A stretch of DNA of 64,000 bases from Escherichia coli. GTDB lineage: Bacteria; Pseudomonadota; Gammaproteobacteria; Enterobacterales; Enterobacteriaceae. A model generated the notes under the pieces. The model searched no databases and was not told the origin of the DNA. It saw only the letters and a program-made list of their open reading frames with translations. Position 1 is the first letter of the stretch, and every line of letters begins with the position of its first letter. Below are positions 32,011-34,992 of this stretch, one piece after another. A program made the position numbers and the translations under genes. The stretch lies in NCBI RefSeq assembly GCF_003334385.1, contig NZ_QOWN01000002.1. One strand, written 5' to 3'.

Positions 32011-32211
32011 TCAGTGCTCTAACTCCAGCTCTCTTGCCTGCATCATCTGTTGACAATACCAGGCATAACGTGCGCAAAACCAGGTTCTATGTTCTTCATC
32101 CATGTTACCAGTAACGGCCAGAATATCGACCGGGCGACCTTCTGCGTGCATTCTGGCAAAACTACGCGCCAGGAAATCGAAATTATTTAAAGAATTAAGA
32201 CTATGATCCAT
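32011..32211 (-). CDS. glgS: Surface composition regulator GlgS (66 aa); start trimmed to [10 protein letters not shown]
   Basis: ORF track frame; characteristic GlgS sequence. Confidence 0.9.
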
Positions 32212-32479
32212 AAGCACATCCTCCGGTTATCGCATACCTTTTAAGGCCATATGCTTTTTCTGATTTCAGTATTCCCCAATCAGTGTAGTGCCTTTAAACA
32301 TAACGTGCGTAAATATATTGTCCCCGATCACACTTTTTAGTGAAAAATAAAAAACCATATTAAAAGACTTTCTCTTCCAGAACTTCTCTAACCTGTGTTA
32401 TTATTAACACAGTTAAATGTAAGCAAGGAAACTATTACAAAGTAAATATTGCGTCACTAAATGGACATTGGAGTGATAT

Positions 32480-33109
32480 ATGATTTTATTCGCCGACTAT
32501 AACACCCCTTATCTTTTCGCTATTTCCTTTGTACTGTTGATCGGCCTGTTAGAAATTTTTGCGCTTATCTGCGGTCACATGCTCTCCGGTGCTCTTGATG
32601 CACATCTTGACCATTATGATTCTATAACCACAGGTCATATTAGCCAGGCACTTCATTATCTCAATATTGGAAGATTGCCAGCTCTCGTCGTTCTCTGCTT
32701 ACTGGCTGGTTTTTTTGGTCTTATTGGCATCCTGTTGCAGCATGCCTGCATCATGGTCTGGCAATCACCACTGTCGAACCTGTTCGTGGTTCCTGTCAGT
32801 TTACTGTTTACGATTATTGCGGTGCATTATACCGGTAAAATAGTTGCGCCCTGGATTCCACGCGACCATAGTTCAGCTATTACAGAAGAAGAATATATTG
32901 GTAGCATGGCGTTAATTACCGGTCATCAAGCCACTTCAGGTAATCCCTGCGAAGGAAAACTCACCGATCAATTTGGCCAAATACATTATTTACTACTGGA
33001 GCCTGAAGAAGGAAAAATTTTCACTAAAGGAGACAAAGTGTTAATTATTTGCCGACTTTCTGCAACGCGATATTTGGCGGAAAATAATCCCTGGCCCCAA
33101 ATATTGTAA
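32480..33109 (+). CDS. yqiJ: NfeD-like inner membrane protein
   Basis: ORF track; 209 aa; TM helices + C-terminal OB-fold region. Confidence 0.85.
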
Positions 33110-33135
33110 TTTATTAATCAAAAGGAAATTTAATA

Positions 33136-34797
33136 ATGGATGATATTGTTAATTCTGTGCCCTCCTGGATGTTTACCGCAATTATTGCCGTATGCATTCT
33201 GTTTATTATTGGAATTATTTTCGCCAGGCTCTATCGTCGCGCTTCGGCAGAGCAAGCTTTTGTTCGTACTGGTTTAGGTGGGCAAAAAGTGGTAATGAGC
33301 GGTGGCGCAATCGTGATGCCGATCTTTCATGAAATAATCCCCATCAATATGAATACTCTGAAGCTGGAAGTCAGCCGCTCAACCATTGATAGCCTGATTA
33401 CGAAAGATCGTATGCGCGTCGATGTAGTAGTCGCTTTCTTTGTGCGGGTAAAACCTTCAGTAGAAGGGATTGCCACCGCTGCCCAGACGCTGGGGCAACG
33501 CACCCTGTCGCCTGAAGACTTACGTATGTTGGTTGAAGATAAATTTGTCGATGCCCTCCGTGCAACAGCTGCGCAAATGACCATGCATGAGTTACAGGAT
33601 ACCCGCGAGAACTTTGTGCAGGGGGTGCAAAATACAGTGGCAGAAGACCTGTCGAAAAACGGTCTGGAACTGGAGAGCGTTTCACTTACCAACTTTAACC
33701 AGACCTCGAAAGAACATTTCAATCCGAACAATGCCTTTGACGCCGAAGGTTTAACCAAACTGACTCAGGAAACAGAGCGCCGTCGCCGCGAACGTAACGA
33801 AGTTGAACAGGATGTAGAAGTTGCGGTGCGTGAAAAAAATCGCGATGCGCTATCGCGCAAGCTGGAGATTGAACAGCAAGAAGCGTTTATGACGCTTGAG
33901 CAGGAGCAGCAGGTTAAAACCCGTACTGCCGAACAGAATGCACGTATTGCGGCTTTTGAAGCTGAACGTCGTCGTGAAGCAGAGCAGACACGAATTCTGG
34001 CTGAACGACAGATTCAGGAAACAGAAATCGACCGCGAACAGGCCGTCCGCTCAAGAAAGGTTGAAGCTGAACGTGAAGTTCGCATTAAAGAGATCGAACA
34101 GCAGCAGGTCACCGAAATCGCTAACCAGACGAAATCGATCGCTATTGCCGCCAAATCGGAACAACAGTCCCAGGCAGAAGCGCGTGCTAATCTCGCACTT
34201 GCAGAAGCGGTAAGCGCCCAACAAAACGTAGAAACCACTCGCCAGACTGCCGAAGCCGATCGTGCTAAACAAGTTGCCCTAATCGCTGCCGCGCAGGATG
34301 CAGAAACCAAAGCGGTTGAACTGACCGTGCGGGCGAAAGCAGAAAAAGAAGCCGCAGAGATGCAGGCGGCGGCTATCGTTGAGTTAGCCGAAGCTACACG
34401 TAAAAAGGGTCTGGCGGAAGCAGAAGCACAACGTGCGCTGAACGATGCTATCAACGTACTTTCTGATGAACAAACCAGCCTTAAATTCAAACTGGCCTTG
34501 TTGCAGGCGCTGCCTGCGGTAATAGAGAAATCCGTTGAGCCGATGAAGTCAATCGACGGTATCAAGATTATTCAGGTCGATGGTCTGAATCGTGGCGGCG
34601 CTGCGGGTGATGCAAACACGGGTAATGTGGGGGGCGGAAACCTGGCGGAACAAGCATTATCAGCCGCTCTCTCTTACCGCACACAGGCACCGCTGATTGA
34701 CTCCTTGCTCAATGAAATTGGCGTTTCAGGCGGCTCACTGGCGGCATTGACTTCACCCTTAACCTCAACAACTCCCGTCGAAGAAAAAGCAGAGTAA
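33136..34797 (+). CDS. yqiK: Flotillin-like SPFH/band-7 domain protein with long Ala/Glu/Gln-rich coiled coil
   Basis: ORF track; 553 aa; N-terminal TM, SPFH domain, repetitive coiled-coil. Confidence 0.88.
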   Translation: MDDIVNSVPSWMFTAIIAVCILFIIGIIFARLYRRASAEQAFVRTGLGGQKVVMSGGAIVMPIFHEIIPINMNTLKLEVSRSTIDSLITKDRMRVDVVVAFFVRVKPSVEGIATAAQTLGQRTLSPEDLRMLVEDKFVDALRATAAQMTMHELQDTRENFVQGVQNTVAEDLSKNGLELESVSLTNFNQTSKEHFNPNNAFDAEGLTKLTQETERRRRERNEVEQDVEVAVREKNRDALSRKLEIEQQEAFMTLEQEQQVKTRTAEQNARIAAFEAERRREAEQTRILAERQIQETEIDREQAVRSRKVEAEREVRIKEIEQQQVTEIANQTKSIAIAAKSEQQSQAEARANLALAEAVSAQQNVETTRQTAEADRAKQVALIAAAQDAETKAVELTVRAKAEKEAAEMQAAAIVELAEATRKKGLAEAEAQRALNDAINVLSDEQTSLKFKLALLQALPAVIEKSVEPMKSIDGIKIIQVDGLNRGGAAGDANTGNVGGGNLAEQALSAALSYRTQAPLIDSLLNEIGVSGGSLAALTSPLTSTTPVEEKAE

Positions 34798-34992
34798 ACC
34801 CTCTTCCAGGAATAATCCCTGGCCCAAAAAGCCGGGGATTTTTTATATCTGCGTTCCGCTAAAAAGTGCAAATGATCAGGTTGTTGCAGCATTTTGCGTG
34901 ACGGCTCGGGGAAGGCAAAACTGCATCAGAGAAAGCATTGCGTGGGGTCTGGCGCTCATCAACAATCGGGGAGTCAGCAGGGGGCTGAAACG

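Follow-up and report, generated by a model that had tools for sequence, protein, structure and literature searches.

In the window, by which we mean the whole 64-kb stretch of Escherichia coli DNA analyzed here, a divergent gene pair flanks a spacer of 268 bp with 34% GC: glgS lies on the minus strand with its ATG at 32211, and yqiJ lies on the plus strand with its ATG at 32480, followed by yqiK. Window positions are converted to MG1655 positions (NC_000913.3) by adding 3,159,728. The inverted repeat under study, CTGTGTTATTATTAACACAG, was found in this spacer at 32393-32412 by exact reading of the sequence, and the features considered below are the following.

32011 to 32211, minus strand: glgS, the divergent neighbor (ORF call; mapped start at 32262, with a -10 hexamer AATACT at 32273-32268)
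32314 to 32335, no strand assigned: CRP-like site TATATTGTCCCCGATCACACTT, the best in the spacer (center 32324.5; 11.1 bits with a rough matrix, rank 3 in the window)
32376 to 32381, plus strand: weak candidate -35 element TCCAGA, matching 3 of 6 positions, with a 17-bp spacer (inferred)
32393 to 32412, no strand assigned: inverted repeat, perfect 8-4-8, CTGTGTTA-TTAT-TAACACAG (repeat finder; MG1655 3,192,121-3,192,140)
32394 to 32398, plus strand: putative extended -10 element TGTGt, which fits TRTGn and has its key TG at 32396-32397 (-17 to -13 by prediction)
32399 to 32404, plus strand: putative -10 hexamer TATTAT, identical to TATAAT at 5 of 6 positions, including A2 and T6 (hexamer scan)
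32405 to 32412, plus strand: right arm of the repeat, the putative discriminator and predicted start, not conserved outside E. coli
32411, plus strand: predicted yqiJK transcription start, an A 7 nt past the hexamer (about MG1655 3,192,139; from promoter geometry only)
32480 to 34797, plus strand: operon of yqiJ (32480-33109) and yqiK (33136-34797), the presumed target of the promoter (ORF calls)

The original prediction had described a 7-6-7 inverted repeat with an ATTATT spacer, in AT-rich surroundings and about 70 bp from the start of yqiJ. The repeat itself is there, but its dimensions had to be corrected to a perfect 8-4-8 structure around TTAT; its setting agrees with the description, since local GC content is 31 to 36% and the repeat ends 67 nt upstream of the yqiJ ATG. 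As DNA it can form a hairpin with an 8-bp stem (-6.3 kcal/mol), a trivial property in a sequence that had been picked as a palindrome. A terminator or structured RNA was considered and rejected: the terminator scan called no intrinsic terminator at the repeat, the Rfam search gave no family match for the repeat region, and the predicted yqiJ 5' leader folds no better than shuffled sequence (z = +1.1). Within this leader, GTCACT...AGTGAT at 32452-32476 may form a 6-bp stem abutting the GGAG ribosome-binding site, and this stem is kept in all aligned Escherichia sequences (AGTGAT or AGTGAC, both of which pair). Directly after the repeat, position 32413 is T in the window strain and A in MG1655 and most E. 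coli, which is the sole difference between the window and MG1655 across the 401 bp compared.

Perfect inverted repeats with arms of at least 8 and spacers of at most 10 were counted against a null of dinucleotide shuffles. By this measure, the window holds 54 nested matches, compared with 13.6 +/- 4.5 in the shuffles, and these amount to about 30 separate places when counted by eye, mostly GC-rich terminator-like hairpins. When the 268-bp spacer alone was shuffled, an 8-bp-arm repeat appeared in 6% of cases and a 7-bp-arm repeat in 22%. Further copies of TGTGTTA-N4-TAACACA were not found beyond chance, as the 64-kb window holds two matches at up to 3 mismatches, including the repeat itself, for 2.04 expected. 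The repeat is real, yet by itself it is statistically insignificant.

Conservation was assessed across 19 yqiJ loci, comprising the window and five other Escherichia lineages, three Citrobacter, two Salmonella, and eight further genera or species (Superficieibacter, Intestinirhabdus, Kluyvera, Kosakonia, Klebsiella aerogenes, Yokenella, Phytobacter, and Erwinia). In the alignment of nine sequences (the window, five other Escherichia, two Citrobacter, and one Superficieibacter), the only invariant columns within the repeat are T32396, G32397, T32399, A32400, T32401, T32402, and T32404, which read TGnTATTnT, while positions of the arms vary. In the nearer relatives, the left outer arm CTGTG is replaced by ACATG, GCATG, or TTATG, and the right outer arm ACACAG by GCAAAG, GAAAAG, or A-AAAG. 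At the right arm, E. coli has TAACAC, the other Escherichia have TAGCAA, TAGAAA, or TAAAAA, and Citrobacter and Salmonella have AACG..; in Yokenella, Phytobacter, and Erwinia the bases are CCACC, TCCCC, or TTCTC. The sequence 3' of the hexamer varies freely among the genera in this way, which is in keeping with a discriminator and not with the second half of an operator.

At 17 of the 19 loci, TGnTAnnnT is found 50 to 75 nt ahead of the yqiJ start codon (mean of 4.2 and maximum of 10 in 2000 shuffles), the exceptions being Kosakonia and one divergent Salmonella locus. The stricter TGnTATn[AG]T is present in 8 of the 12 lineages at genus level (mean of 0.43 and maximum of 4 in 5000 shuffles). 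Several of the genera bearing the motif lack glgS and have flanks that cannot be aligned (Intestinirhabdus, Kluyvera, Yokenella, Phytobacter, Erwinia, and Superficieibacter). The gene upstream of yqiJ is there a codirectional EF-Tu-like 3' end in Superficieibacter and a codirectional PF04380 (BMFP) gene in Intestinirhabdus, Kluyvera, Yokenella, and Phytobacter. The yqiJ-yqiK pair is retained in all the enterobacterial loci with called genes listed, and the distance from the motif to yqiJ is roughly fixed, whereas that to glgS is not. Because it persists in genera that have no glgS and a different, codirectional gene ahead of yqiJ, the motif is tied to yqiJ rather than to glgS.

Within E. coli, the spacer was found in 5,419 of 5,426 complete genomes, and eleven sequences were compared closely. 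These fall into two linked haplotypes. The perfect repeat CTGTG...ACACAG (C..C) is present in the window, MG1655, and two other strains; the remaining seven carry an imperfect one, ATGTG...ACAAAG in six and ATATG...ACAAAG in O157. In the eleven together with the close relative Escherichia sp. MOD1 (L002), TGTTATTATTAACA at 32396-32409 is invariant, and the polymorphic positions are 32393, 32395, 32410, 32413, and 32414. The three of these that lie in the arms (32393, 32395, and 32410) are uncompensated within E. coli, and the G/A polymorphism at 32395 falls on the R of TRTGn. A search with 100 bp returned 4,171 matching records, 1,587 of them at least 99% identical to the window, and about 1,270 more genomes lacked a shared 28-bp exact word. 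About 29% of E. coli records belong to the class at least 99% identical to the perfect-repeat allele. Two records were sampled between 95 and 99% identity: the one at 98% (H36) has the perfect repeat, and the one at 95% (H37) does not. Thus, from the haplotype counts and the identity classes, the perfect palindrome is a minority allele, found in roughly a third of genomes. A separate rearrangement was seen in E. coli strain C10 (L040, NZ_CP195940.1), where an IS1 insertion some 16 bp ahead of the repeat, near window position 32377, takes the place of the -35 region and of all sequence farther upstream of the predicted yqiJ promoter; TGnTATTAT and the leader remain intact.

We consider it likely that the center of the repeat is a sigma-70 extended -10 promoter of yqiJK, and that the palindrome is a coincidence specific to one haplotype. 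Extended -10 (TGn) promoters are recognized through sigma region 3.0, galP1 being the classic example, and a weak -35 element is usual among them. The TRTGn form of the extension is said to have been described by Mitchell et al. in 2003. TATTAT at 32399-32404 is the only hexamer on the plus strand of the spacer that joins a 5 of 6 match with an upstream TGn, and its TG stands one base before the hexamer, at -15/-14 of the predicted promoter. A TGn precedes the hexamer in 17 of the 19 yqiJ loci, and although the orthologous hexamers read TATTGT, TATCGT, or TAGTAT in other genera, the A at position 2 and the T at position 6 are always kept, while the -35 element is weak in every genus (2 to 4 of 6 matches). 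The built-in promoter scan called no promoter in the spacer, because it accepts only -35 elements that match at 4 or more of the 6 positions. The likeness to known promoters of this class therefore includes a TG one base before a good -10 (TGtTATTAT), the T-R pair upstream (TGTG or TATG), and a poor -35 element; the candidate differs from them in having T rather than A at hexamer position 4 and in being predicted from sequence and conservation.

Under the promoter reading, TGTGt would be the TRTGn extension and TATTAT the -10 element, the -35 element being poor, and we infer that RNA polymerase would start transcription at this element, near 32411, which leaves about 69 nt of 5' leader. The left arm (-18 to -11) would then consist of the extended -10 and the first two bases of the hexamer, and the right arm (-6 to +2) of the discriminator and the start site. 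The palindrome would arise because AT-rich -10 sequences are partly self-complementary (TTA-TTAT-TAA), and in one haplotype the two extra bases C32393 and C32410 would by chance make the pairing complete. On this reading, no dedicated DNA-binding factor has to be invoked.

The data on start sites and polymerase binding are of unequal resolution. The dRNA-seq table of Romero 2014 for E. coli contains the glgS start and no forward-strand start in the spacer. The only reverse-strand start that it lists in the spacer is a primary start at U00096.2 position 3,190,012, which corresponds to window position 32262; the use of this older coordinate version was verified by the 375-bp spacing of the neighboring ibs/sib starts. 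For yqiJ, there is no start entry among the matches listed for the Mendoza-Vargas 2009, ROSE, Kim 2012, and Ramachandran 2012 (Salmonella) supplements, and the start-site paper on Shigella M90T has annotation matches only for yqiJ and no start. Genomic SELEX with RpoD holoenzyme, at low resolution, classes the glgS/yqiJK spacer as a constitutive promoter region flagged as H-NS-bound (PMC3946193); in this assay the holoenzyme alone, without accessory factors, binds the spacer. Broad, low-resolution ChIP-chip regions for RNA polymerase, sigma-70, and sigma-S also cover the spacer (Cho 2014, PMC3923258 supplement). Both data sets are too coarse to assign the binding to the candidate element itself. 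By computation alone, Shimada et al. placed a yqiJK promoter, TTTAAA-15-TATATT, some 85 bp upstream (PMC3946193), and this suggestion has no TGn. As a separate observation, NarQ overexpression in E. coli W upregulates yqiJK along with acrD, mliC, pgaABCD, and dgcT, a membrane-associated set (2026 paper, PMC13124679), which hints at envelope-stress control of the predicted promoter.

The repeat ends in TGTGT...ACACA, and it lies in a spacer recovered by CRP genomic SELEX next to glgS, a cAMP-CRP target (PMC3105977). It could accordingly be read as a weak or secondary CRP site, either of the proposed TGTGN-N8-NCACA class with an 8-bp spacer or as two overlapping registers with 6-bp spacers, each matching 8 of 10 core positions, that would contribute to glgS control or repress yqiJ. 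We hold this to be highly improbable. A rough matrix, built from 17 classical sites and yielding approximate scores, gives the training sites 7.4 to 17.5 bits, whereas the best register of the repeat reaches 7.1 bits, below every training site and 33rd of about 64,000 window positions. Unlike the TGTGA-N6-TCACA of CRP sites, its half-sites are 8 bp apart, and the C of ACACA is A in most E. coli. Its center at 32402.5 lies at -140.5 from the glgS start and at about -8.5 relative to the predicted start of yqiJ. Neither location suits activation, both being away from -41.5, -61.5, and the further upstream helical steps. CRP is accounted for elsewhere in the spacer, because the site at 32314-32335 scores far higher and is centered at -62.5 from the glgS start, a class-I-like position, while the repeat is both low scoring and misplaced. 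The site at 32314-32335 is probably the one behind the cAMP-CRP dependence of glgS, and the view that the repeat does not fit CRP is borne out. The conserved core could alternatively be a -10 element on the minus strand (AATAAT, 32405-32400), belonging to a promoter that would drive glgS from farther upstream or produce an antisense transcript. This strand does offer 5 of 6 matches in Escherichia (AATAAT) and in Citrobacter and Superficieibacter (TACAAT), and Hengge-Aronis and Fischer reportedly found two glgS starts in 1992. It is nevertheless a highly unlikely reading, ranked low because there is no TGn on that strand, the -35 match is poor (2 of 6), and the motif persists in genera without a divergent upstream gene; moreover, the motif keeps its roughly fixed distance to yqiJ and not to glgS, and the start at 32262 is the only reverse-strand one listed in the spacer by Romero 2014.

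The original prediction left room for an operator of an unassigned factor. In its most specific form, the palindrome would bind an unassigned dimeric repressor over the yqiJK -10 element and start, and would work as an operator in the K-12-type (C..C) haplotype. The perfect 8-4-8 symmetry, with its -6.3 kcal/mol hairpin, and a center near -8.5 relative to the predicted start, a location suited to repression, are in favor of such a site, as is the fact that both derived bases of the C..C haplotype make a new pair. However, repeats of this kind are expected by chance, and the 64-kb window, which was the extent of the search, holds no further copies beyond chance of the sort a regulon would have. 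Furthermore, the half-sites are neither conserved nor compensated: 32393, 32395, and 32410 vary, the repeat is imperfect in seven of the eleven E. coli sequences, only the class of about 29% of records is at least 99% identical to the perfect-repeat allele, and outside E. coli, in other Escherichia species as in other genera, the promoter motif is retained without the right arm. Among the accessible papers on yqiJ and yqiK, no regulator or factor for yqiJ was found. Conservation in relatives had been proposed as a check on the repeat, and the operator reading fails it, since close relatives do not keep the repeat; its center is explained by the promoter element, and we rate the repressor site as very unlikely. 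Slighter still is the chance that the K-12-type derived bases created either a working operator for an unassigned repressor or a noncanonical CRP site with an 8-bp spacer over the yqiJK -10 element and start; if this were true, the regulation of the flotillin operon would differ in about one E. coli strain in three.

Other known regulators were compared with the repeat. It shares with the LexA SOS box the terminal CTGT and ACAG tetramers, but it has CTGT-N12-ACAG where CTGT-N8-ACAG is required, and its first base is A instead of C in most E. coli; LexA was rejected on this spacing, as had been anticipated. The Zur box overlapping the znuC promoter reads TGTGATATTATAACA. Like the repeat, it is a palindrome around a TGnTATTAT extended -10, and the left halves are nearly identical; the repeat differs in having one extra base between its halves, which puts the half-sites out of register. 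The simplest explanation for the resemblance is that both are TGnTATTAT promoters. Among 39 papers mentioning yqiJ, no title relates to zinc or Zur. By eye against consensus sequences, Zur was unconvincing for being one base out of register, as were TyrR and GacA/UvrY (TGT-N12-ACA only), Fur, IHF, NarL/NarP, a LysR-type T-N11-A, an MqsA half-site AACCT just upstream, and an EvgA half-site TGTAAG downstream. A different element was seen in the three Citrobacter loci, where GTAAC-N5-GTAAA runs downstream from the last bases of the -10 hexamer (L007 2424-2438, L008 2424-2438, and L022 1424-1438). It resembles the CpxR consensus, GTAAA-N5-GTAAA, and is absent from Escherichia and the other loci.

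A full-text search of the literature with the repeat sequence and the CRP-like site returned no match. The repeat is an ordinary feature of a known kind, and a candidate orphan operator can be struck off the list. What the promoter reading provides is a concrete predicted position for the promoter of the yqiJ-yqiK flotillin operon, with a start near MG1655 3,192,139, which is of annotation value only and differs from the only published prediction found (TTTAAA-15-TATATT, PMC3946193). It also illustrates how a striking palindrome can result incidentally from an AT-rich extended -10 element.

Two further observations concern other parts of the window. The highest-scoring CRP-like sequence anywhere in the window, TAATTTGATTTAGATCGCAATT at 59431-59452 (17.4 bits with the rough matrix), sits in a divergent spacer between an ORF ending at 59348 on the minus strand and one starting at 59655 on the plus strand, which should be the aer/patA region according to the MG1655 offset. 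An identical palindrome, TATGATGAAGCTCGTCATCATA, occurs twice, 375 bp apart, at 35037-35058 and 35412-35433, about 230 to 300 bp downstream of two annotated Ibs toxin genes (about 34740-34800 and 35115-35175 by the MG1655 offset). Because the 375-bp spacing is common to both and the copies lie downstream of the Ibs genes, they belong to the duplicated ibs/sib repeat unit.
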